Assembly: GCA_900316985.1 (NCBI GenBank)
Contig: ONFE01000040.1
Location: 1,039 to 65,038 of the forward strand
Origin: an uncultured Prevotellaceae bacterium
Lineage (GTDB): Bacteria; Bacteroidota; Bacteroidia; Bacteroidales; Bacteroidaceae
DNA length: 64,000 nt
Direction of reading: 5' to 3'
Within the stretch, counting starts at the first letter, position 1; every line of letters begins with the position of its first letter. Positions 2,771 to 61,263 of the stretch are shown here, piece after piece. Both the position numbers and the translations under genes were made by a program. The notes under the pieces were generated by a model. That model searched no databases, was not told the DNA's origin, and was given only the letters and a program-made list of their open reading frames with translations.

Positions 2771-4300
2771 TTAGAATTGGAAATAGATGAAGGGCTGGAT
2801 GTCGGAGGAGCGCACCTGAATGATAATATAGATGACAGCGGTCAGCAGCAGGGCGTGGACCACGACACCAGAACGAGAGAGAATGGCTGTCATGCGTCGC
2901 TGCCAGGTGTATGGTAGCCAATGCGAGATTAGCGCAAAGGCAATGAGTGCAAACACGAGGCGGAATGAGTCAATGACAGGCCAGAAGTATTCGGGATGTA
3001 GTTCAAGGAAAATATTGTGAAGGATGATGCTCCACTGGCTGATGTCGGTAGCACGGAACATAATCCATCCTAATACGCAGAAATGGAAGGTGATAATCAC
3101 GGCAAAGAAGCGCTTGACGCCATGGCTGCGGTAGCGGCGGTCATGATGGAGCACCTCCTGACTGAAGAGCTTATGGGCAACCACACCCAGACCATGCCAG
3201 GCACCCCAGATGATGAAGTTGAAGGCAGCGCCATGCCAAAGTCCGCAAATCAGGAAAGTGAGGAAGTTGTTCAGATAGGTACGGAACTTCCCCTTGCGGT
3301 TGCCGCCCAAAGAGATATAGAGATAGTCGCGCAGCCAGGAGGAGAGCGAGATATGCCACCGGCGCCAGAATTCCGTGATGGAGGCGCTGGTATAGGGGGC
3401 GTTGAAGTTCTGCGGGAACCGGAAGCCCAGCAGCAGGGCTATTCCGATGGCCATGTCGCTATAGCCGGAGAAGTCGCAATAGATCTGCACGGTATAGCCA
3501 TAGACGCCCAGAAGCGTCTCGATGCCGGTATAGAGGGCGGGATTGTCGAAGATACGGTCCACATAGTTGAGCGAGATATAGTCGCTGATGACGGCTTTCT
3601 TGAAAAGACCGATGAGGATGAGGAACACCCCTTCGCCCATCATACGGGAGGTAATGGTGAGAGGACGGTGGATCTGCGGTACGAATTCGCGGGCCTTGAC
3701 GATAGGGCCTGCCACCAGTTGTGGAAAGAAACTCACGAAGAAGGCATAGTCGAGCAGTCTCCGGAGCGGTTTGACATGGCCTCGGTAGATGTCGATGGTA
3801 TAGCTCATCGACTGGAATGTGAAGAAGCTGACACCCACGGGCAGGAAGATGTCCCACGGCTGGAAGTTGTTGCCTATGATCTGGCTAATGGAGCCGAAGA
3901 AGAAGTTGGTGTATTTGAAATAGCAGAGTAGGGCGAGATCGATGACCATACTGAGGGCCACCATCCATTGAGCAGCCCGTTTGTGCCCCTCGTTGCGCAG
4001 CCGTCCCACCTGTGCGCCGATAAGCCAGTCGCTGATGGTGACCACAGCCAGCAGGAAGAAATAGAAACCGCTGCTCTTGTAATAGAAATAGTAGGAGAAA
4101 AGCGTCACGAACAACAGGCGTGCCGTGGTGTGGTGACGCAGGAGCATATAGACAAACGTGAAGGCAAGGAACATGAACAGGAAGAGTCCGCTTGAGAAAA
4201 TAAGCGGATGAGCAGCATCGTAGGTGAGTTGCTGGATTAGCAACTCAGGCTGCAGATACTGCGTCATAAACTGCCATTTTTCCTGTAATTCTTCGAACAT
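2771..4300 (-). CDS. MBOAT-family O-acyltransferase (AlgI/PatA/DltB-like)
   Basis: Polytopic membrane protein with LPVGVSFFTFQ, FFPQLVAGPI, FSGYSDMAIG, EFWRRWHISLS, GLWHGA. Confidence 0.92.
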   Translation of the reverse strand: MFEELQEKWQFMTQYLQPELLIQQLTYDAAHPLIFSSGLFLFMFLAFTFVYMLLRHHTTARLLFVTLFSYYFYYKSSGFYFFLLAVVTISDWLIGAQVGRLRNEGHKRAAQWMVALSMVIDLALLCYFKYTNFFFGSISQIIGNNFQPWDIFLPVGVSFFTFQSMSYTIDIYRGHVKPLRRLLDYAFFVSFFPQLVAGPIVKAREFVPQIHRPLTITSRMMGEGVFLILIGLFKKAVISDYISLNYVDRIFDNPALYTGIETLLGVYGYTVQIYCDFSGYSDMAIGIALLLGFRFPQNFNAPYTSASITEFWRRWHISLSSWLRDYLYISLGGNRKGKFRTYLNNFLTFLICGLWHGAAFNFIIWGAWHGLGVVAHKLFSQEVLHHDRRYRSHGVKRFFAVIITFHFCVLGWIMFRATDISQWSIILHNIFLELHPEYFWPVIDSFRLVFALIAFALISHWLPYTWQRRMTAILSRSGVVVHALLLTAVIYIIIQVRSSDIQPFIYFQF

Positions 4301-4337
4301 TTAATTTTTAATCTTTAATCTTTTATCCTTCATCCCT

Positions 4338-5717
4338 CTATTCATATCCCGCCATTAGGGAGGCCATCATCTTGGTTGCCAGCAATCTGCCGCCGCCGTA
4401 GGAAGGATGCGTGTAGTCGTGGCCTACCATTCGGCGATTCACAAGTTCCGCTATACTGTTGCGCCCGCCCATCATCTGGAAGAAATTGAGAAAGGCCACC
4501 TTGTTCTCCATCGCAATGCGCTGTTGGCAGGCCACCATTCCCTCCACGCCCCTCATGGTGACGATCTGGCCGTTCTGACGACTGCCACGGTCGGGCATGC
4601 TCACAACGAGGATGGAAGCATTAGGATAGGCCCGCTTGAAACGGCTGATGACGGAACCCATTTGCTGCTGGTAGTGGCTGAACCACTTGCTGCCAGAATG
4701 CTCATTGACGGCATTGAGGCCAAACTGCAGGATGATGAGGTCGTAAGGGTAGAGGCTGTTCATCTGACTGAGCGTTTGTTCTGGAATCTTGGAGAGCGTC
4801 ATTCCTGCACAGCCGCGCATCGAGAAGTTATCCACCGAAACTCCCTGATGAGGTTCGAGTGAGGCACCATAGAAGATGGTGGAGGCGTTGGAGCCGTTGA
4901 TGTTCCATTTTACCCTCGACATAGGGCCGTCTACATGCACCTCCTGGATATTGGGAGCGGCTTCGGCATAGAAGGTCTGCGGCTCGCCGTTGATGGTAGC
5001 CGTGATGGTAATAGGTTCTTCGGTACGGAAGAAGAGAGAGGCGCGGTCCCAATGGTCGAGATTCTTGCGGTATTTGGTGCCGCTGTAGGTGAGCGAGGCA
5101 TTGCTTTCTGCCTTGAAATAACGCTGGGAAGGACCGAGCAGGGCGCTGTTGTACTGTTTCTGGACAACGGCATAGGAACCGAAGCCGGAAGGTTTCTGCA
5201 CAACCGTGGGGCGCAGACTGTTGGACGTCTTGCCGCAGTCTACCCATCCCACGCCGCTGCCGCCGAACTTCTGTTGTAGTTGTTCACGGAGGTCGCAGAC
5301 CAGGATATCACCCTCGATATAGGAGTCGCCCCAGTAGCCCACTCGCACTGGACGGTCCATGTTGTTCACGTTGTCAAGGGCAGCATAGAAAGACTCCATT
5401 CCGTGGACACTGCCTTCGGAGTAGTCTTCTACAGGCGTCACTCCTTCAGGAATGGGAGCGTGATGGCGAAGGGTATCAGTCTCGGCGTTCTGCAGGGAGT
5501 CATTGCGGGCAAAGAGTTGCTTCATGGGCATGACCACGGCCGTGTCCTCCTTCTCCAGATTGTCATTGCCATAGACCTCTGGAATCACGTCGCTCAGGAT
5601 GTTGACGGCACGCAGGTGACGGTCCCAGACGGTAATCTGGGGCAAAAAATGCATGGCAAGAAGCAAGATGGTTACCAAAGCAACGAGTATAAACGTCTGC
5701 GCAGGCCTGTTACTCAT
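4338..5717 (-). CDS. Periplasmic SGNH-family O-acetyltransferase/esterase (PatB/AlgJ-like partner of the MBOAT)
   Basis: N-terminal TM; motifs GDSYIEGD, GLNA, DYTHP. Start trimmed to MSNRPAQ (5717). Confidence 0.75.
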   Translation of the reverse strand: MSNRPAQTFILVALVTILLLAMHFLPQITVWDRHLRAVNILSDVIPEVYGNDNLEKEDTAVVMPMKQLFARNDSLQNAETDTLRHHAPIPEGVTPVEDYSEGSVHGMESFYAALDNVNNMDRPVRVGYWGDSYIEGDILVCDLREQLQQKFGGSGVGWVDCGKTSNSLRPTVVQKPSGFGSYAVVQKQYNSALLGPSQRYFKAESNASLTYSGTKYRKNLDHWDRASLFFRTEEPITITATINGEPQTFYAEAAPNIQEVHVDGPMSRVKWNINGSNASTIFYGASLEPHQGVSVDNFSMRGCAGMTLSKIPEQTLSQMNSLYPYDLIILQFGLNAVNEHSGSKWFSHYQQQMGSVISRFKRAYPNASILVVSMPDRGSRQNGQIVTMRGVEGMVACQQRIAMENKVAFLNFFQMMGGRNSIAELVNRRMVGHDYTHPSYGGGRLLATKMMASLMAGYE

Positions 5718-5896
5718 TTCTGAAATTCGAAAATCGGCTGCAAAGATACCTATTTTTATATTATTATCCAAATAATCAGTGTCTATTTGACCTTTTTTGG
5801 AAAAAGACAAAAAAGATTATACCGATTTCTTGGTTTTATCGGTAATAATATCTATTTTTGCAACAAATAAGTTGTTAATCATTAAAATCAAAAGAA

Positions 5897-6457
5897 ATGG
5901 CAATTTTAATTATTCTTATCGTATTGGCCGTGTTGGTGGGACTTTATTTCCTGAACACACAGCGCGAGTTGGTAAACCTTGACGAGATGGCCAACAATGC
6001 CCTCAGTCAGATTGGCGTACAGCTTACTTCCCGTTGGGATGCCGTGACAGCTTTGGTGAAACTCACGAAGGACTATGCACGTCATGAGCACGACACCCTG
6101 GTGGAAGCCATCGAGAAGCGCCGCATGACAAATCCTACTACCGCTCAGCAGATTAATGACCAGTTCAGCGCCACTTCCGAGATCCTCGGCCGTCTGATTG
6201 CCGTGAGTGAGCGTTATCCCGAGCTGAAGGCTTCGGAAGTCTATAGGGACACCATGGCATCCCTGCAGAAGTATGAGGAGAACGTGCGCATGAGCCGTAT
6301 GGTGTATAATGATTCTGCCACGAAGATGAACCGTATCGTCCGCCAGTGGCCCTCCAGTATCGTAGCCAGCATTCTTCATTTCGGTAAGCGCGAATACCTG
6401 CAGACCGAGGAGAAGAAGCAGGAATATCCCGATATCGATGCTGCCCTGAAGAGTTGA
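5897..6457 (+). CDS. lemA: LemA family protein
   Basis: N-terminal TM; ERYPELKA and RMVYNDSATKMN...WPSSIVA pattern typical of LemA. Confidence 0.9.
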   Translation: MAILIILIVLAVLVGLYFLNTQRELVNLDEMANNALSQIGVQLTSRWDAVTALVKLTKDYARHEHDTLVEAIEKRRMTNPTTAQQINDQFSATSEILGRLIAVSERYPELKASEVYRDTMASLQKYEENVRMSRMVYNDSATKMNRIVRQWPSSIVASILHFGKREYLQTEEKKQEYPDIDAALKS

Positions 6458-8133
6458 CCTGCATGAGGAATCCTACTAAGTTGTTCGCCTGTACAGCCGC
6501 CTTGCTCTTCAGCATGGGTGTCTGTGCCGACAATCATATGCACAACCTCAATATCACAGTGACGTTGTCCGACAATGGTTCGGCCCACGTGGAGGAAGTA
6601 CGCCAATATACCATTGACGACCATAAGCACACGGAGTTCTATATGCCCATGAACCTGCCCACCGATATGTCACTTTCGGCTTTCAGTGTGGAGGAAGACG
6701 GGGAGATGATGACGGACAGCACCCCCTGGGACATCGACCTCTCCCGCGAAATGAAGAAAGGACGCTACGGCATTGTGGACAAGGGTGACAACCGCTATGA
6801 ACTCTGTTTCGGTATGGGCGACAACGGCGACCATACATTCAGGCTCCGCTATAATATAGGCAACATGCTGCGAGGCTATTACGAGAGTGATGGCTTCATC
6901 TTCATGTTCTATTCTCGCGATACCAATGAACCCCCAGAGCAGTTCACGCTGACCATCCGCCGCGATGATGGACAGCCTATGGATGGTACCAATGTTTGGG
7001 CCTTTGGCTTCGGCGGTGAAATCCAGGTGATGGATAGTGTAGTGAAAGCATGGAGCACACAGCCCCTGGAGCGCCAGAACCATATCACGGTGATGATTGA
7101 GACCCCCAAGGGAATGTTCCACCCCGCCGTGGAGACGGGAGGAGACTTCGAGAGCGTGAAGCAGCGAGCCATCGAGGGCAGCGACTACACGCCAGAGAAT
7201 GATGGTGGTAGTGGAAGTGGTGATGGAATCATGGGTATCCTTTGGCAAGTAGGTTCCTACGTGCTCCTGTTCCTTGCCTGCTGTCTGCCTTCCATCTATA
7301 GTTATTTCAAGCGTCGCAAATGGCGCAAGAAACTCATCGGCAATGGCAAGGACGTCCCCTGGCAGCGCGAGATTCCCTGCAAGAAGAGCCTCCACCGTTC
7401 GAACATGATCTATACGACCCTCGAGGGAACCGACAATTCCAAGAACTTGATGGGTGCCTATATCATGCGCATGATCTATCAGGGAGTGCTCGGCGTGGAG
7501 ACCGTGCTTATCAAGAATAAGCAGCAGCCCTGTCTGAAGATTGCCAATCCCGAACAGGCTGGTGCTGAAGAACAGGAAGATCAGGACAAAGCCAATATGA
7601 GAGGCATCGTCCAGATTCTCCAGGAAGCTGCAGGCGAGAATGCCCTGTTGGAGCCTGGTGAGATGAAGCGATACGCCAAGAACAAGCCCACCCGTATGGA
7701 AAAACTCTACAATGCCCTGACGCTGAAGAAAAAAATCCCTTATAAAACCATTGACCAGAAGGATGCCCTTGACGTCTACGGACTGAAGAAGTTCCTGGAA
7801 GACTTTACCTTGGTGAAAGAGCGCCATGCGGTGGAGGTGAGCCTTTGGAACGAATACCTGGTGTATGCCACCCTTTACGGCAATGCTAAGCAAGTGATGA
7901 AGGATTTCCGCGAGATCTGTCCCGAGTTCTACGAGCAGTCAGAATTGGGTAAGACCATGAACCAGGTGACCGACTTCGATGTATTCGTGTCCTCGTATAG
8001 TGCCAGTGTGGCAAATGCATTTACGTCGGCTTACAGCCACAATCATCCCCGTTCGAGCGGAGGTGGCGGTTCGTCAAGTTTCGGTGGTGGCGGCGGATTC
8101 TCCGGCGGTGGTTTCGGCGGTGGCTCCCGTTAA
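6454..8133 (+). CDS. DUF2207-domain membrane protein (usual LemA partner)
   Basis: Signal peptide, central TM, WNEYLVYATLYG motif, Gly/Ser-rich C-terminus; overlaps the lemA stop. Likely start is ATG 6463. Confidence 0.8.
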   Translation: MTCMRNPTKLFACTAALLFSMGVCADNHMHNLNITVTLSDNGSAHVEEVRQYTIDDHKHTEFYMPMNLPTDMSLSAFSVEEDGEMMTDSTPWDIDLSREMKKGRYGIVDKGDNRYELCFGMGDNGDHTFRLRYNIGNMLRGYYESDGFIFMFYSRDTNEPPEQFTLTIRRDDGQPMDGTNVWAFGFGGEIQVMDSVVKAWSTQPLERQNHITVMIETPKGMFHPAVETGGDFESVKQRAIEGSDYTPENDGGSGSGDGIMGILWQVGSYVLLFLACCLPSIYSYFKRRKWRKKLIGNGKDVPWQREIPCKKSLHRSNMIYTTLEGTDNSKNLMGAYIMRMIYQGVLGVETVLIKNKQQPCLKIANPEQAGAEEQEDQDKANMRGIVQILQEAAGENALLEPGEMKRYAKNKPTRMEKLYNALTLKKKIPYKTIDQKDALDVYGLKKFLEDFTLVKERHAVEVSLWNEYLVYATLYGNAKQVMKDFREICPEFYEQSELGKTMNQVTDFDVFVSSYSASVANAFTSAYSHNHPRSSGGGGSSSFGGGGGFSGGGFGGGSR

Positions 8134-8155
8134 GGAATCATCCCATTGGAATAAA

Positions 8156-8191
8156 AAGAAAGACAGACACCCGTAAGTGTCTGTCTTTCTT
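8156..8191. terminator. Bidirectional intrinsic terminator between the DUF2207 gene and tRNA-Arg
   Basis: Perfect 15-bp stem AAGAAAGACAGACAC / GTGTCTGTCTTTCTT with a 6-nt loop, between convergent genes. Confidence 0.8.
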
Positions 8192-8192
8192 G

Positions 8193-8264
8193 TGGTCCCA
8201 CCGAGAATCGAACTCGGATCTAATCTTTAGGAGAGACTTGTTCTATCCATTGAACTATAGGACC
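8193..8264 (-). tRNA. tRNA-Arg (anticodon CCT)
   Basis: Reverse complement GGTCCTATAGTTCAATGGATAGAACAAGTCTCTCCTAAAGATTAGATCCGAGTTCGATTCTCGGTGGGACCA; cloverleaf with anticodon loop CT-CCT-AA and a TTCGA T-loop. Confidence 0.95.
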
Positions 8265-8316
8265 AGATAGCGCCTTTGGCGCGTTTCAAGTTTCAGGTTT
8301 CAGATTCCAACGTAGC

Positions 8317-10386
8317 CTATCCTACCTGACTGCCGGGCTTCACATCCTTGGTAGTGGTGACCACGCTGAGACTTTCATCGCTGTCAACGGCCGAGAGAAT
8401 CATTCCCTGACTCTCAATGCCCATCATCTTGCGGGGCTCGAAGTTGGCCACGAAGAGTACACGCTTGCCGATGAGTTGCTCGGGATTCTCGTAGAAGGCG
8501 GCAATGCCGGAGCAGATAGTGCGGTCCTGACCGCTACCGTCGTCGAGGGTGAACTGCAGGAGTTTCTTCGATTTCTTCACTTTCTGGCAGTCTTTGACGA
8601 GTCCCACGCGGATATCGAGTTTCTCAAAGGTCTCAAACGGGATGTTTTCCTTTACGGGAGCTGCCTTGTAGTTGGCGGCCTCGTTGGCTTTCTTGGTGGC
8701 TTCCAGCTTGTCAATCTGCTTCTGGATGACGTCGTCCTCGAGTTTCTCGAAGAGTAGCGATGGCTCACCTAACTGATGGCCTGCCGGCAGGATATCGGTG
8801 TTGCCGAGTTCCTCCCAGTTGCATTCCTTCAGGTTGAGCATGTTGCGGAGCTTCTTCGATGAGAAGGGCAGGAACGGCTCGAAGGCGATACTGAGGTTGG
8901 CAGACAGTTGCAGACAGATATTGAGGATGGTCTTCACGCGCTCCATATCGGTCTTGGCCACCTTCCAGGGCTCACAGTCGGTGATGTATTTGTTGCCGAT
9001 ACGGGCCAGGTTCATGGCCTCCTTCTGGGCATCGCGGAACTTGAACTGGTCGAGCAACTGCTCCACCTTTTGTTTCACGTCCTTGAATTCCTCGATAGCC
9101 TGACGGTCGATATCCTGCAGTTCGCCGCACTCGGGAACAATGCTGTTGAAGTATTTCTTTGTTAGCTGGAGGGCACGGTTCACGAAGTTTCCGTAGATGG
9201 CCACCAATTCAGAGTTGTTGCGCTCCTGGAAATCCTTCCACATGAAGTTGTTGTCCTTGGTCTCGGGGGCATTAGCGGTCAGCACGTATCTTAATACGTC
9301 CTGCTTGCCGGGCATATCCTCCAGGTACTCATGCAGCCAAACAGCCCAGTTGCGCGAGGTGGAAATCTTGTCATTCTCCAAATTCAGGAACTCGTTGGCG
9401 GGAACATTGTCGGGCATGATGTAGCCGCCGTGGGCCTTCATCATCACAGGGAAGATGAGGCAATGGAACACGATGTTGTCCTTACCGATGAAATGCACCA
9501 GACGGGTGTCCTCGTCCTGCCACCATTTCTGCCACGTTCCCCAGCGCTCGGGATTGCTCTCGCAGAGTTCCTTTGTATTCGAAATATAGCCGATGGGCGC
9601 ATCGAACCACACATAGAGCACCTTCCCCTCTGCTCCCTCCACGGGAACGGGGATGCCCCAGTCTAGGTCGCGCGTCATGGCGCGTGGCTGCAAGTCCATG
9701 TCGAGCCAGCTCTTGCACTGGCCGTATACATTCGGGCGCCATTCCTTATGACCTTCCAGAATCCACTGCTTCAGCCATTCCTGATAGTCGTTCAGCGGCA
9801 GATACCAGTTCTTGGTCTCCTTCAGCACAGGCTGCGAACCGCTGATGGTACTCTTCGGATTGATGAGCTCGGTGGGCGAAAGGTCGCGTCCGCATTTCTC
9901 GCACTGGTCGCCGTAGGCACCTTCGTTGTGGCAATGGGGACATTCGCCGGTGATATAGCGGTCGGCCAGGAACTGCTTGGCCTCCTCGTCGTAATACTGC
10001 TTGGAAGTCTCTTCTACCAACTTTCCCTCATCGTAGAGTTTGCGGAAGAAGTCGCTGGCAAATTGATGGTGCGTCTTAGAAGTGGTACGCGAATACACGT
10101 CGAAAGAGATGCCGAACTGTTCGAACGAATCTTTGATCATCTTGTGATAGCGGTCCACCACATCCTGCGGGGTGATGCCTTCCTTGCGGGCACGCATAGT
10201 CACGGGCACGCCGTGCTCGTCAGAGCCGCCGATAAACATCACTTCCTCACCTTTCAGACGGAGGTAGCGCACGTAAATGTCGGCCGGGACATACACGCCG
10301 GCCAGGTGTCCGATATGCACACCGCCGTTAGCGTAGGGCAGTGCCGAAGTCACGGTAGTGCGCTTGAATTTCTTGTTCTCTTCCAT
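8317..10386 (-). CDS. metG: Methionine--tRNA ligase
   Basis: LPYANG.HIGH, zinc knuckle, KISTS, C-terminal tRNA-binding (Trbp111-like) domain. Confidence 0.98.
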
Positions 10387-54541: not shown

Positions 54542-56179
54542 CTAGAAATCGGGAGCTTTCTGGAACTCCATTATTTCATCGGTCAGCGGATGGGTGAAAG
54601 AGAGGTATTCGGCATGAAGGTAAAGACGGTCAGAATGGAAACCGTAGAGGTCATCGCCAACAATCGGCATTCCCAATCCGTCTTGGTGGGCACAATGCAC
54701 ACGCAACTGGTGGGTGCGGCCGGTATGGGGTGTGAGCAAAACACGGTAATACGGTCCTTCCTGGCCGATAAATTCATAATCGGTCACCGCTGGTTTTCCC
54801 TCTTCGTAATCTACTACTTGTCGCGGACGGTCTAAGTAATCTGGGGCGAGAGGGAGAGAGATAACCCCCCTCTGACTCCCCCGAGGGGGAGGAAGAGAAC
54901 CACCCCTGCCCTCCCTGTTTAGGGAGTTTTTATCCGCTTCAGAAGTATTTTCTCCCTCCCTTTGGGAGGGATTAAGGGTGGGTTGTACCATTGCCACATA
55001 GCGTTTCTTCACTTCGCGCTGCTCGAACTGTCGCTGCAGTTGTTTATAGGCAAACTCGGTTTTGGCCACCACGATGATGCCGCTGGTGGCCTGGTCGAGC
55101 CGGTGAACCATCATAGGACCCGTTGCATTCGGGAAACGTTGGCGCATGATGTCGTAAAGCGAAATCTCTCCCGTGTTGCCTGGGACCGATAGCAGTCCTT
55201 CGGGTTTGACTACTACGGCTATTTGGTCATCAACGAAAAGAGTTTGGACGTAAACACCTGCTCCCTCCCTTCGGGAGGGCTGGGGTGGGCTTCCTCCCTC
55301 CCTTCGGGAGGGTAAGGGGTGGGCCAATTGCCAACTCAGTATAGGCTTGCACTTGCCGTTGCAGGCGGGATAGAACTGGAAATGATGGCGGATTTCGCGC
55401 TTCGGACTCTCTCCCCACCAGAATTCGGCAATGGCCAGCGGCTTCAGGCCATGCTGGAAGGCATACTGGAACAATTTAGGCGCACAGCATTCGCCTGTAC
55501 CGCCTGGCGGTAACGGGAACTTGCGCAACAGCTTCGGCGAATTATGGTAATCGCGCCAAATGTCCACCACATTGCGCACCTCTCCCTTATAATTAATAAG
55601 GTTGTATTGTTCGAAGAGCCAAAGCAGCAGGTCGTTTGACATCTGCTTGCGCTGGTGTTTGAGGGAAAGAAGCCCCCCTCTGTCCCCCCGAAGGGGGGAG
55701 GATTCGGATTCTGAAGAAAGATTCGATGGAACCTTCCCCCCTTCGGGGGGATTGAGGGGGGCTTGTAACGCTTCAATCTCCTTGTTTAGGGCGGAAATTT
55801 TTGCTTCGGTCTGTTTGAAATGGCCGTCGGGCTGTTGCGCATCGAATATGGGCGGAACGAACCAATCCCAATCGTTGCGGCCCGCCAACAGGCCGGCATA
55901 GGCGGCGAGGAAACTAACCCCCCTCTGACTCCCCCGAGGGGGAGCATCTTGAACGGGCTCTTGCTCTCCCCCTCGGGGGAGTTGGAGGGGGGTTACTATT
56001 AATACCCCGAACATTTCTCCTTTCTCGGCATCGGCCAAAAGCTCCTCGTGTGCGCGTACATATTTCTTTACCTCCTCGGCAGCTAACAGGCACAGGGGAT
56101 GCGGCTCATAGTTGAACGGGTTGTTCAGCTGTGAGGGCGGCTCGATGTCGGTTTGAAGCGGATGTACTCGCAGATTCAT
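54542..56179 (-). CDS. rluA: RluA-family pseudouridine synthase with Bacteroidetes N-terminal extension
   Basis: VVVKPEGLLSVPG, catalytic HRLDQATSG, TGRTHQLRVH, IVGDDLYG, LHA. Nine palindromic inserts. Confidence 0.92.
   Translation of the reverse strand: MNLRVHPLQTDIEPPSQLNNPFNYEPHPLCLLAAEEVKKYVRAHEELLADAEKGEMFGVLIVTPLQLPRGGEQEPVQDAPPRGSQRGVSFLAAYAGLLAGRNDWDWFVPPIFDAQQPDGHFKQTEAKISALNKEIEALQAPLNPPEGGKVPSNLSSESESSPLRGDRGGLLSLKHQRKQMSNDLLLWLFEQYNLINYKGEVRNVVDIWRDYHNSPKLLRKFPLPPGGTGECCAPKLFQYAFQHGLKPLAIAEFWWGESPKREIRHHFQFYPACNGKCKPILSWQLAHPLPSRREGGSPPQPSRREGAGVYVQTLFVDDQIAVVVKPEGLLSVPGNTGEISLYDIMRQRFPNATGPMMVHRLDQATSGIIVVAKTEFAYKQLQRQFEQREVKKRYVAMVQPTLNPSQREGENTSEADKNSLNREGRGGSLPPPRGSQRGVISLPLAPDYLDRPRQVVDYEEGKPAVTDYEFIGQEGPYYRVLLTPHTGRTHQLRVHCAHQDGLGMPIVGDDLYGFHSDRLYLHAEYLSFTHPLTDEIMEFQKAPDF
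54862..55995. repeat. Nine GC-rich hairpin elements at four in-frame sites in rluA
   Basis: 54862-54891, 54898-54926, 54952-54982, 55261-55290, 55294-55324, 55672-55700, 55732-55762, 55915-55944, 55964-55995. Confidence 0.9.
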
Positions 56180-56216
56180 AGATGCCAGGCAAGCGGATTT
56201 TGTTCAGACTAAAGAA

Positions 56217-56247
56217 AGAAGCCGCATCTTGAACAGGTGCGGCTTCT
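56217..56247 (-). terminator. Intrinsic terminator of eno
   Basis: AGAAGCCGCATCT-tgaac-AGGTGCGGCTTCT stem with a T-rich tail on the minus strand. Confidence 0.8.
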
Positions 56248-56265
56248 TCTATGGGAAGTGATGGA

Positions 56266-58929: not shown

Positions 58930-61263
58930 TTATGCGTAGGAATGCATACCACCAAGGAAATAGTTCACGCCGAAATAGGTCATCAGAATGGTAAGGAAAG
59001 CCAGTACCATATAGAGGTGGTAGTGGCGGGGACTGCGCAGCCAGGGGATGCTTTGCTGGTGAACGGGTACGGCATAGACCATGAAAGTGATGAGCGCCCA
59101 GGTCTCCTTTGGATCCCAACTCCAGTAAGTGCCCCACGACACGTTGGCCCAGATGGCACCGATAAAAATGCCGAGACCCATGCAGGTGAGGGCGGGATAG
59201 AGGAAGAGCTGACTCATCAGAAGTGAAGAGTGAAGAACCCCCTCTGAACCTCCCCGAGGGGAGGCATCCTTTTCTTTCGGACAAGTTAGAGAATGGCCTG
59301 TAATCAATCCCCAGATGCCTGTGAGGAAGGTGATGCTCAGCAGGGCGTAGGCCATCATGATGACGCTGACGTGGATGGTGAGCAGCGGAGAGGAGAGCAC
59401 GGGCATGAGATGACCGATTTGAGGATCCATTTGTGAGATGTGGCTTACTAAAAGGAAGAAGCCGGAAAGCAGCAGCCCGAAAGTCAGAATAACGGGGAAA
59501 CGGCGATACATGAGCAATGAGATAAGCATCACAAACCAAGCCATGGTGAGCATGGTCTCATAGCCGTTCGACATAGGAATGGTGCCGGAGATAATCCATC
59601 GGAGAGCCATCGCGAAGGTGAGCGCCAAGAATGAGAGCCCCAGCACGGTCAGTCCGATGCGTTGCATCCATTTCTTGCGGATCAGCGTCAGGAAAGCCAT
59701 CGTCAGACATACCATGAAGAGAATGGTGGCAAAGGGAATTTTATTATAGATATGCTCTGCCCATGTCTGGGTTTGGGAAGGTAACGAAGCTGCACCATAG
59801 CGTAGCTGATACTGCTGCATCTTGGTGAGCATCTGGTCCATTTGGCCCCATTGCCCGTTGAGGGCATACTTGTAGAGCAGAGAGAAAGCATCCTGGATAT
59901 ACTTCTTGCGCTCAGCATCCATTTCGTCGGGCAATTCATCAGTAGGGGCATACCAGATGATGGTTGAAGGTTGATGGTTGAAGGTTAAGGGGGCGGGGAA
60001 GATCTTGAGGGGCATACCCTGACGCAGTTCAACGAGCATCATCAGTTTGTCGTCAACTTTCGTCACATCCTGATGAAACTTGTCACGGTTACCCTGAGCG
60101 GCCTCCTGCACGTATGGTCCCAGGATATAGCCACCCATTTCCTCCTTGAAGAAAGAGGTGAAAGAGCAGCGGTCGGGTAACTGAAGCGTGGATTTCAGCG
60201 GGCCGCTTTTCATCTTGATGATGGGTTGCTTCTCCCATTCATCACCGTAGAAGATGAAGTTGGCCAGCAGTTGCTCGGCCGTGTAGCGGTTGCCTTCCGC
60301 ATCCTTGTAGTAGCGCTTGCCTGTGAGTTTCTTGGTGAAGTCGAGGGCGTAGGTCTGTAAGGGACAGATGCGGTCGTTGTAGTTGATGTACAGCTGTCCT
60401 AGACGGGCGGCCGTCTCTTTCGGGATGGTATTGGCTGCTTTTAGAGGAGAGAGGAGAGAGGAGAGAGGAAAGAGAAATGCTATGAGCATGAGGCTCTTTT
60501 GCAGTTTCTGGTCGTCTTTCGTATCTTGACCCTTGTTGTTTGTCATTTGATTGATTTCTCTCAGGATTCTGCGATACTGTCCTTTCGGATCGAAAAGCAT
60601 CCAGATTAGCGCGATGAAGAGCAGGGCATAGCCCGTATAGGTGACGGGAATTCCCCACGGGTCACAGTTTACGGCCAGGATGCTTCCCTGCATGTCGGGG
60701 TCGTAACTGCTTTGGTAGAAACGGTAACCCTGATAGGAGAGAATTTTGTTCATGGAGATGGTAGCATTGCTCTCAGGTCCTTGGGTGGAAGAGGATTTGG
60801 CATGTTTTGAAAGGGGCAGGATGGTGACCTTGGTGACGTAGTCGGCATGGGCCATCGTCCCTTCATGGTAATTCACCTCGAAATCCTTGAGCGCAATGCG
60901 GAAGGGCAAAGCGCGTGTCTTGATGTTGTTGCCTTCCTGTGCCAGATAGTAGTTGATGGTTTCACCCTTACGGAGATGAATCATGCCCCGGCGGGCGGTG
61001 AGATGCGTAAGCAAGGCACCGGCCAGAATGACGATAAATGAAAGATGGAGCACCACGGCGAAGACCTTCCTCACGCGCCTTTTCACGAACCAGGCAATAG
61101 CAGCGGCTGCCAGCAGAGCCCATAATACGGAAAACCACCATGAGCCGTACCAGTACTCACCCACATGGGCCGTACCTTTGTATTTTTCCACGATAGTAGC
61201 GGCGGCCATCACCACGATGACCGTCACATAAAGGAATATGAGAACAGGTTTCAGATGCTTCAT
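58930..61263 (-). CDS. ccsA: Cytochrome c biogenesis protein, System II CcsBA-type fusion
   Basis: ResB-like N-terminus (YGSWWF, LHLSFIVIL, FYQSSYDPD); tryptophan-rich motif WANVSWGTYWSWDPKETW; YFLGGMHSYA. Confidence 0.9.
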   Translation of the reverse strand: MKHLKPVLIFLYVTVIVVMAAATIVEKYKGTAHVGEYWYGSWWFSVLWALLAAAAIAWFVKRRVRKVFAVVLHLSFIVILAGALLTHLTARRGMIHLRKGETINYYLAQEGNNIKTRALPFRIALKDFEVNYHEGTMAHADYVTKVTILPLSKHAKSSSTQGPESNATISMNKILSYQGYRFYQSSYDPDMQGSILAVNCDPWGIPVTYTGYALLFIALIWMLFDPKGQYRRILREINQMTNNKGQDTKDDQKLQKSLMLIAFLFPLSSLLSPLKAANTIPKETAARLGQLYINYNDRICPLQTYALDFTKKLTGKRYYKDAEGNRYTAEQLLANFIFYGDEWEKQPIIKMKSGPLKSTLQLPDRCSFTSFFKEEMGGYILGPYVQEAAQGNRDKFHQDVTKVDDKLMMLVELRQGMPLKIFPAPLTFNHQPSTIIWYAPTDELPDEMDAERKKYIQDAFSLLYKYALNGQWGQMDQMLTKMQQYQLRYGAASLPSQTQTWAEHIYNKIPFATILFMVCLTMAFLTLIRKKWMQRIGLTVLGLSFLALTFAMALRWIISGTIPMSNGYETMLTMAWFVMLISLLMYRRFPVILTFGLLLSGFFLLVSHISQMDPQIGHLMPVLSSPLLTIHVSVIMMAYALLSITFLTGIWGLITGHSLTCPKEKDASPRGGSEGVLHSSLLMSQLFLYPALTCMGLGIFIGAIWANVSWGTYWSWDPKETWALITFMVYAVPVHQQSIPWLRSPRHYHLYMVLAFLTILMTYFGVNYFLGGMHSYA
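59236..59264. repeat. GC-rich hairpin element, in-frame in ccsA
   Basis: AACCCCCTCTGAACCTCCCCGAGGGGAGG, encoding ASPRGGSEGV; near-identical to the rluA copies at 54862 and 55915. Confidence 0.8.
60443..60477. repeat. Five tandem AGAGGAG-type heptamers in ccsA
   Basis: AGAGGAG x3, AGAGGAA, AGAGAAA; read on the pyrimidine strand as FLFPLSSLLSPL. Confidence 0.85.

Follow-up and report, generated by a model that had tools for sequence, protein, structure and literature searches.

In-frame colonization of an RluA-family gene by short GC-rich repeats of triplex-motif design in an uncultured Prevotellaceae bacterium

Introduction

Here, we focus on a pseudouridine synthase gene of the RluA family (hereafter rluA) and on the short palindromic repeats that lie within its reading frame. 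The gene belongs to a stretch of 64,000 nucleotides, referred to below as the window, taken from the genome of an uncultured Prevotellaceae bacterium (GenBank assembly GCA_900316985.1, contig ONFE01000040.1, positions 1,039 to 65,038). A preliminary description of the window had proposed that rluA was invaded by nine GC-rich hairpin elements and nevertheless stayed intact. The reading that we favor, and regard as quite probable, is that members of a selfish repeat family, short, GC-rich, non-coding and spread over the whole genome, have colonized the gene at four loops that tolerate them. The repeats form a family built of three covarying parts, their presence is polymorphic among strains, those in rluA occupy loops of the protein, and the reading frames that carry them are intact. 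That they are selfish, in the sense of non-adaptive, and the way in which they spread are what we infer from these properties.

Nine Units at Four Sites in an Intact Gene

The domain, the catalytic residue and the fold of the host protein all place it in the RluA family. PseudoU_synth_2 (PF00849) spans residues 320-498 of the 545-residue open reading frame (ORF; Pfam, E 9e-30), and a Foldseek comparison matches the C-terminal half to RluA of E. coli (2i82) with an E-value of 9e-24, 40% identity and a TM-score of 0.84 on the target. The catalytic aspartate lies in an HRLD motif of which all four residues (H359, R360, L361, and D362) are invariant in an alignment of 46 homologues. The reading frame is unbroken through all nine units, and in this the preliminary description was correct. 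The N-terminal ~300 residues (window 55300-56179, minus strand) have no Pfam match and no fold match in the PDB, yet they are well predicted. They are conserved across Bacteroidota (Prevotella, Bacteroides, Parabacteroides, and Flavobacterium), with C231, C232, C273, and C277 invariant in the motif PLPPGGTGxCCAPKLL...YPACxGKCxPIL, and may possibly represent a metal-binding accessory domain.

All nine hairpin units of ~30 bp, paired or clustered at four sites as had been claimed, were returned by a repeat finder (Table 1), which sorted them into a 32-nt direct family with five copies, a 30-nt family with three and one degenerate copy. The same search gave 100% identity over 30 nt between 54862-54891 and 55915-55944 and 19 nt in common between the tandem units of site 3 (CTCCCTCCCTTCGGGAGGG), both of which had been noticed before, and every peptide quoted in the preliminary description is found in the translation. 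The arms of the inverted doublet at site 1 are 93% complementary, and those at site 2, which are 36 nt long, reach 89%. A 16-mer core of the repeat has seven matches in the window where 0.49 would be expected, and the 1638 bp of rluA hold eight perfect units compared with 0.105 expected at the genome-wide density (Poisson P ~3e-13).

Table 1. Position and content of the repeat units and of the host gene in the window
Feature	Window position	Strand	Residues	Composition	Encoded peptide	Basis
Site 1	55915..55995		~63-88	81-nt inverted doublet, units 55915-55944 and 55963-55995, 21-nt spacer	PLQLPRGGEQEPVQDAPPRGSQRG	
Site 2	55670..55764		~140-170	95-nt inverted doublet, units 55670-55699 and 55733-55764, TCCCCCC/GGGGGGA class	PLNPPEGGKVPSNLSSESESSPLRGDRGG	
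Site 3	55261..55325		~286-307	Direct tandem pair, units 55261-55292 and 55294-55325, 33-nt spacing	HPLPSRREGGSPPQPSRREG	
Site 4	54862..54983		~399-437, inside catalytic domain	Three units, 54862-54891, ~54896-54928 (degenerate) and 54952-54983	PTLNPSQREGENTSEADKNSLNREGRGGSLPPPRGSQRG	
Further single unit	59235..59264			CCTCCCC-GA-GGGGAGG with tail, in frame in 777-aa membrane-protein ORF 58930-61263 (-)	..DASPRGGSEGV..	
Host gene, RluA-family pseudouridine synthase	54542..56179	-	545 aa			ORF, Pfam and Foldseek
Catalytic HRLD motif	55094..55105	-	359-362	Free of inserts		Direct sequence reading and alignment

Insertions Relative to Orthologues and Strains

For the comparison of rluA, 8000 homologues were scored and six strain alleles from public metagenome assemblies were aligned as DNA. 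In orthologues of ~50% identity and 473-481 residues, the four segments are simply missing from the alignment. Proteins that are 80-98% identical to the query have, at the same four sites, the same units, units of another subfamily, a truncated remnant, extra units or nothing at all, and these differences were confirmed base by base in the six strain alleles. At site 1, units are absent, truncated or swapped for another subfamily in four strains (L111, L113, L114, and L151), and the protein P0010 encodes the other subfamily there (PTLNPSRREG...SLPSGGLG). At site 2, other strains carry one CCCTCCCT unit or none; at site 3, one strain (L113) has three units and two others (L111 and L112) have different ones; and at site 4, unit 54862-54891 is missing from a 95%-identical strain (L150/P0003), and the entire cluster is missing from another (P0079). 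When the protein was searched by tblastn against 24 species of the genus, the match broke exactly at the insert sites. Eight other species have orthologues of 45-50% identity with units of the same family at equivalent loops, namely after query residues 63-85 and 133-150 and at a further loop at 473-476, and most species are wholly without inserts in rluA. By these alignments, the copies in rluA are true in-frame insertions relative to the orthologues, at exactly the four sites where the preliminary description had suggested looking for them.

Two of the alleles, those of the query and L150, deserve a separate remark. They are identical over the 60 nt upstream of the site 4 element, and directly downstream of it (window 54830-54862) there are five synonymous differences within seven codons (ISLPLAP). 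The clustering of these differences suggests a recombination junction at the element.

It could be argued that the four segments are ordinary fast-evolving linkers of low complexity or the product of assembly and homopolymer errors. The four sites do vary in length even in orthologues without units, and the tracts are rich in C and G homopolymers. Against this, the gene has one 30-nt DNA sequence in two identical copies, ~240 related units with a conserved three-part structure are found in the genome, and the frame is unbroken. Moreover, an assembly artifact is ruled out because independent public assemblies from different samples encode the same inserts (P0001, for instance, at 98% identity). 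The possibility of assembly error raised in the preliminary description was thus not borne out, and we consider this whole line of explanation close to negligible.

The position of the inserts in the protein was taken from an AlphaFold2 model (46 sequences, mean predicted local distance difference test score, pLDDT, of 80.5). The model has only four segments with pLDDT below 50 (68-84, 148-163, 288-307, and 404-429), all of them coil, and these are the four insert sites. They correspond to the loop of a β-hairpin, the tip of a hairpin of helices, the stretch that links the N-terminal region to the catalytic domain, and a loop within that domain. The model therefore puts the inserts on the protein surface and away from the catalytic core. 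This agrees with the earlier prediction that the elements build Pro/Gly-rich loops in frame, with the inserts falling in predicted disordered loops and presumably being translated as extensions of them.

Anatomy of the Unit: A Hairpin with a Mirror Tail

When the units are oriented by their flanking G-run, they follow a single plan consisting of a C-arm, a loop of 2-6 nt, a G-arm, a linker of 3 nt and a G-rich tail. Reading the C-arm in the direction of the tail, with G in place of C and with T or A in place of T, gives the tail itself, which makes the latter the mirror of the G-arm. This match is perfect in 159 of the 190 units, and the mean tail match of 0.977 compares with 0.869±0.006 when tails are permuted among units. 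For asymmetric arms, the mirror model does better than a direct-repeat model in 143 units, ties in 26 and does worse in one. The rule is kept by all 11 arm classes (CCCTCCCT with GGGTGGGT, CCTCCCC with GGAGGGG, TCCCTCCC with AGGGTGGG, and CCCCTCCTT with GGGGTGGTT, for example), the pairs of G-arm and tail include GGGAGGG/GGGTGGG, GGGGAGG/GGAGGGG and AAGGAGGGG/GGGGTGGTT, and the most frequent linker is 3 nt in nine of the 11. The mirror rule extends to six other genomes, where new classes such as CCCCTCTCC with GGGGTGAGG and TCCCCCTCC with AGGGGGAGG are found. Throughout the genus (151 genomes), the mirror pattern has ~467 matches in 50 genomes, compared with ~29 in 17 for a direct-repeat control of the same composition. 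The view of the tail as a direct repeat was rejected on the strength of the genus-wide counts and of the asymmetric arms.

A third strand that runs antiparallel to the purine arm and forms G.G:C, A.A:T and T.A:T triads defines the class II purine-motif intrastrand triplex. The units have what this motif calls for: a Watson-Crick hairpin with a loop in the range of 1-6 nt, a mirror third segment and a second loop of 3 nt. Judged by sequence, the unit is therefore a class II purine-motif (reverse-Hoogsteen) intrastrand-triplex design on the G-rich strand, and it would presumably adopt the triplex fold in vivo.

Such a design is not without precedent. The BoxC/PIT/TMECO elements of E. coli read CCCTCNCCC N3-6 GGGNGAGGG N3 GGGNGAGGG (Holder et al., 2015, PMC4666352), which means that they share with the Prevotella units a C-rich arm, a loop of 3-6 nt, a G-rich arm, a 3-nt loop and a G-rich mirror arm (Hoyne and Maher, 2000; PMC4666352). 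E. coli MG1655 has 23 copies, always intergenic, which were found to form a triplex and not a G-quadruplex by nuclear magnetic resonance (NMR); they have no transposase link, are associated with local instability and were reported in Proteobacteria only (PMC4666352). Both groups of elements are G/C-rich, number tens to hundreds of copies, are patchy among close relatives, show local hypervariability and lack a link to a transposase. In contrast to TMECO, the Prevotella arms are 6-9 nt long and fall into many classes, about half of the copies are in ORFs, and inverted doublets are frequent. The TMECO consensus with its 9-nt arms (CCCTCNCCC..GGGNGAGGG..GGGNGAGGG) has no match in the whole genome.

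An alternative to the triplex is that the constraint seen in the tail is that of a G-quadruplex, in which four G-tracts from the G-arm and the tail would compete with the hairpin. Units of the CCCTCCC class read GGGAGGGnnGGGGTGGG, a canonical G-quadruplex motif, and such structures are a known alternative for G-rich triplex sequences (PMC4666352). However, a quadruplex does not predict where the A/T interruption falls in the tail, and the mirror rule does, as in CCTCCCC with GGAGGGG, CCCCTCCTT with GGGGTGGTT and CCCCTCTCC with GGGGTGAGG. There are also classes such as GGGGGAG-TTG-GAGGGGGG that are without four clean G3 tracts, and the homologous design of TMECO is the one for which NMR gave a triplex (PMC4666352). 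We therefore hold the quadruplex to be an improbable source of the constraint.

A Genome-Wide Family with an Intragenic Habit

The genome is a draft assembly of 3.73 Mb in 166 contigs with 49% GC and an estimated completeness of 99.8%, in which long ORFs stood in for gene calls. Its perfect hairpins number 239 and are spread over 191 sites; their C/T arms measure 6-9 nt and their loops 2-6 nt. This count, together with bursts in other Prevotella species, bears out the claim of a dispersed repeat family. Single units are the commonest form (146 of the 191 sites). Inverted doublets are found in 27 clean cases, nine of which have a recurrent form of ~69 nt, or 23 codons.

Nearly half of the units (116 of 239, 49%) are set deep in a long ORF, with at least 50 of its codons ahead of them and at least 30 behind, and 83 of the 191 sites (43%) are fully intragenic. 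Hosts verified by Pfam include GcpE/IspG with five units, an AMP-dependent ligase and QueG with four each, and IspD and a THUMP-like methyltransferase with three each, along with DapF, an MFS transporter, LigA and an M16 peptidase. The gene rluA is the strongest hotspot, in line with the earlier view of it, but is not special in kind. All three frames and both orientations of the units are used, giving unrelated peptides rich in Pro, Gly, Arg, Glu and Ser, and on average 4.7 of the six frames are stop-free per site. Units are depleted in coding sequence, with 67% spanned by ORFs of at least 150 residues compared with 87% for random positions, as would be expected from a filter of purifying selection. 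There is no bias for the transcribed strand (54 vs. 45, p = 0.42), which fits an element that acts at the level of DNA and not an RNA signal. For single units on contigs longer than 30 kb, the G-rich strand of the triplex design has a tendency to face the G-skewed one (37/17 vs. 23/25 by local GC skew, Fisher p = 0.044), a weak signal that is uncorrected and comes from a draft assembly.

In mRNA, the doublets of rluA would form very stable hairpins, with -63 kcal/mol (z -8.8) for site 1 and -72.3 kcal/mol (z -8.2) for site 2, which is striking in a stretch that ribosomes would have to read. A search of Rfam gave no family at the gathering score, and the matches over the doublets were just sub-threshold, miRNA-like long hairpins.

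From these observations, a course of events can be proposed. Elements come and go, are exchanged for members of other subfamilies and are shortened by internal deletions within the time in which strains diverge. The inverted doublets are REPIN-like and can also form long hairpins of great stability. A copy arriving in frame in a surface loop or in a linker between domains would pass purifying selection and be translated as a loop extension, surviving because the elements are nearly stop-free and encode flexible peptides rich in Pro, Gly, Arg, Glu and Ser. An RluA-family protein with four disordered loops would then act as a sink.

The inserts could instead be adaptive, tuning translation through ribosome pausing, making hotspots of recombination and variation, or adding functional flexible loops. 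The extreme stability of the mRNA structures could be seen in this light, as could the hypervariability of the four rluA sites, the cluster of synonymous differences that begins exactly at the site 4 element between 95%-identical alleles, the link of TMECO loci to genomic instability in E. coli (PMC4666352) and the colonization of the same loops in several species. Yet presence and absence differ among close strains and most species have no inserts, the use of all three frames and both orientations yields unrelated peptides in hosts that are functionally unrelated, and intragenic copies are depleted, not enriched (67% vs. 87%). An adaptive role thus appears distinctly improbable to us, and we retain selfish repeats that are tolerated in loops as the better account.

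Distribution and the Question of Mobilization

The CCCTCCC-class pattern is patchy: among 151 genomes of the family, 13 have it, and among 151 of the genus, 38 do, with counts in single species of up to 146, 133, 100, and 45. Controls with the pattern reversed gave no matches in ~300 genomes. Among 190 oriented units, there are 164 distinct cores, and because of this the family must be seen as old and diverse with a few recent duplicates, such as the identical 30-mers of rluA. The recent spread that had been proposed therefore holds for those few duplicates and not for the family. The ligA doublet illustrates how copies change: it is whole in this genome, has lost 42 nt from its interior in one strain and is expanded in a second, and a third strain has an ordinary short loop in its place. 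As to a phage vector, the strict motif was found in only 56 stretches among 2.9 million viral contigs, most of which have none. Among predicted viral contigs, five strict-pattern units are on the 109-kb contig IMGVR_UViG_3300021387_001585 (L153, L189-L191) and four on the 18-kb contig IMGVR_UViG_3300037311_000440 (L198).

How, then, would such repeats be mobilized? The preliminary description had called them a REP or MITE family (MITEs being miniature transposable elements with inverted repeats) and had suggested looking for a linked RAYT gene. Classical REPs and REPINs are mobilized in trans by RAYT, a Y1 HUH transposase, and like them the units are short, high-copy palindromes with frequent inverted doublets; some element-rich relatives even encode Y1_Tnp proteins of 176-201 residues. 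However, Y1_Tnp (PF01797) has no match in this genome, complete as it is, where the same search was positive in six of 14 control genomes. In 24 relatives, the presence of Y1_Tnp does not correlate with element load; it is missing from four element-bearing genomes (G201, G104, G016, and G205) and found in several that are free of elements. Six Y1 loci were inspected and none has a unit within ~1.4 kb. The GTAG/CGTC tags of REPs are at chance level, with 17 and 4 of 190 units having such a tetramer near an end, and half of the copies are intragenic. For this genome, mobilization by RAYT is largely refuted, and we give it very little credence.

A regular tandem array of four units, with a period of 66 nt, is present in a related species (G197:C1:619319-619543, L146). 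Two Y1_Tnp genes lie 5-8 kb from this array, and no units flank them.

As for the MITE half of the label, neither a target-site duplication nor a clean empty site could be called from the rluA alleles of six strains or the ligA alleles of three, in which the flanks are diverged or replaced. Among inverted unit pairs 250-3500 bp apart, no parent insertion sequence (IS) was identified, their internal ORFs having been judged by length only and not screened for similarity to transposases. As it stands, neither name, REP/RAYT or MITE, has support for this family.

A further possibility is that the units are self-propagating DNA, and that the three-part single-stranded fold is itself the intermediate of spread and not an end recognized by a transposase. 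Spread would then proceed by the stalling of forks and a switch of template, or else a hypothetical enzyme that acts on single-stranded DNA would bring it about. This proposal is tentative and we think it unlikely, if less so than the alternatives weighed above.

Several points weigh against our account of a mobile, selfish triplex-motif family, and they should be kept in mind. Mobility is deduced from distribution and polymorphism alone, with no mobilizing enzyme, target-site duplication or clean empty site found, and gene conversion or recombination between copies could be the source of part of the variation. The mirror covariation stems from ~16 arm classes or subfamilies and not from 190 independent events, and sequence alone cannot decide between a triplex and a G-quadruplex fold. 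Since detection of a unit required a perfect stem of at least 6 bp, decayed copies are under-counted. Finally, hairpins of -63 and -72 kcal/mol in a coding mRNA should impede ribosomes, and a cost or a regulatory effect is possible.

Comparison with Other Palindromic Repeats

The behavior of the units within genes, as opposed to their build, resembles that of the Rickettsia palindromic elements (RPE), a precedent that had been cited early on and that holds. RPE (Ogata et al., 2000) and the intragenic GTAG/CGTC REPs of Opitutus terrae, Thauera and R. conorii (Di Nocera et al., 2013, PMC3733652) are likewise short palindromes in frame in many unrelated, apparently functional genes. They are often dimers that encode 20-30 residues, sometimes with several per gene, a surface location is expected of them, and their hosts include genes of DNA replication and repair, as LigA does in Prevotella. 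In rluA, in ligA and in the Pfam-verified hosts, the Prevotella units likewise lie in frame in intact ORFs and are missing from orthologues. Unlike these elements, they occur in Bacteroidota, are unrelated in sequence, have no GTAG/CGTC tag, possess a third mirror segment and are intragenic at 43% of sites and for 49% of units.

With REPINs and their RAYTs (Nunvar, 2010; Bertels and Rainey, 2011), the units have in common inverted doublets of short palindromes, a high copy number and lineage-specific bursts. They differ in being without a RAYT or a REP-flanked Y1 gene, in not being extragenic and in having the mirror-repeat tail. The doublets are also comparable to the Correia elements of Neisseria, which are non-coding MITEs of ~65-150 bp with terminal inverted repeats that now and then become fused to ORFs and whose RNA forms strong hairpins. 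In contrast to Correia elements and other MITEs, no target-site duplication could be called, no IS with matching ends was identified as a parent among the inverted unit pairs, and most sites hold a single unit.

The preliminary description had regarded the repeats as its best candidate for an undescribed system, and this is true in part. The architecture of the unit is already described (BoxC/TMECO, PMC4666352), though not in Bacteroidota nor inside genes, and the in-frame behavior has its precedents (RPE; PMC3733652). No prior description of such repeats in Prevotella or Bacteroidota was found in the literature. What is new is the combination of a triplex-type build with in-frame behavior, the occurrence in Bacteroidota, the scale of intragenic and presumably translated copies in housekeeping genes, and the clean covariation over multiple classes that supports the triplex register.

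Wider Implications

The relevance of intrastrand triplexes in vivo has been an open question since BoxC/PIT. Here, more than 16 arm classes, with copies that run to hundreds in a genome, keep the triplex register, and conservation of a register over several classes is the kind of covariation that is used to validate RNA structures. Should the three-part fold indeed be the intermediate of spread, the mirror rule across many arm classes would amount to natural covariation evidence for purine-motif triplexes that are formed and selected in living bacteria, and the elements, by landing in frame, would continue on a large scale to supply essential proteins with new loops and genes with internal breakpoints for recombination.

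The consequences for the host genes are of interest in their own right. In a major gut and rumen genus, ligA, ispG, ispD, dapF and a pseudouridine synthase gene tolerate predicted inserts of 10-40 residues with mRNA hairpins of -60 to -70 kcal/mol, which bears on translation through structure, on the evolution of protein loops and on strain typing. In addition, the elements inflate variation in protein length, fragment homology searches and mark hypervariable points in conserved genes.

Other Features of the Window and Genome

Besides rluA, the window has one further unit in frame (Table 1). Its host, the 777-residue polytopic membrane ORF (58930-61263, minus strand), contains the motif WGTYWSWDPKE and is CcsA-like, as in cytochrome c biogenesis; the unit encodes KDASPRGGSEGV in a loop.

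Elsewhere in the genome, two paralogous proteins of ~750 residues share their N-terminal sequence (contigs C127, reverse complement 4014-6282, and C152, reverse complement 7147-9409). The C127 copy was scanned and has no Pfam family. Each of the two carries element doublets, at equivalent as well as at different positions, and the pair may possibly be cargo of a mobile element able to carry units between genomes.

The interval that separates the enolase gene from rluA contains, at 56216-56248 of the window, an inverted repeat of 14 bp (AAGAAGCCGCATCT/AGGTGCGGCTTCTT) with a loop of 5 nt, which looks like an ordinary terminator-like hairpin with no relation to the repeat family.

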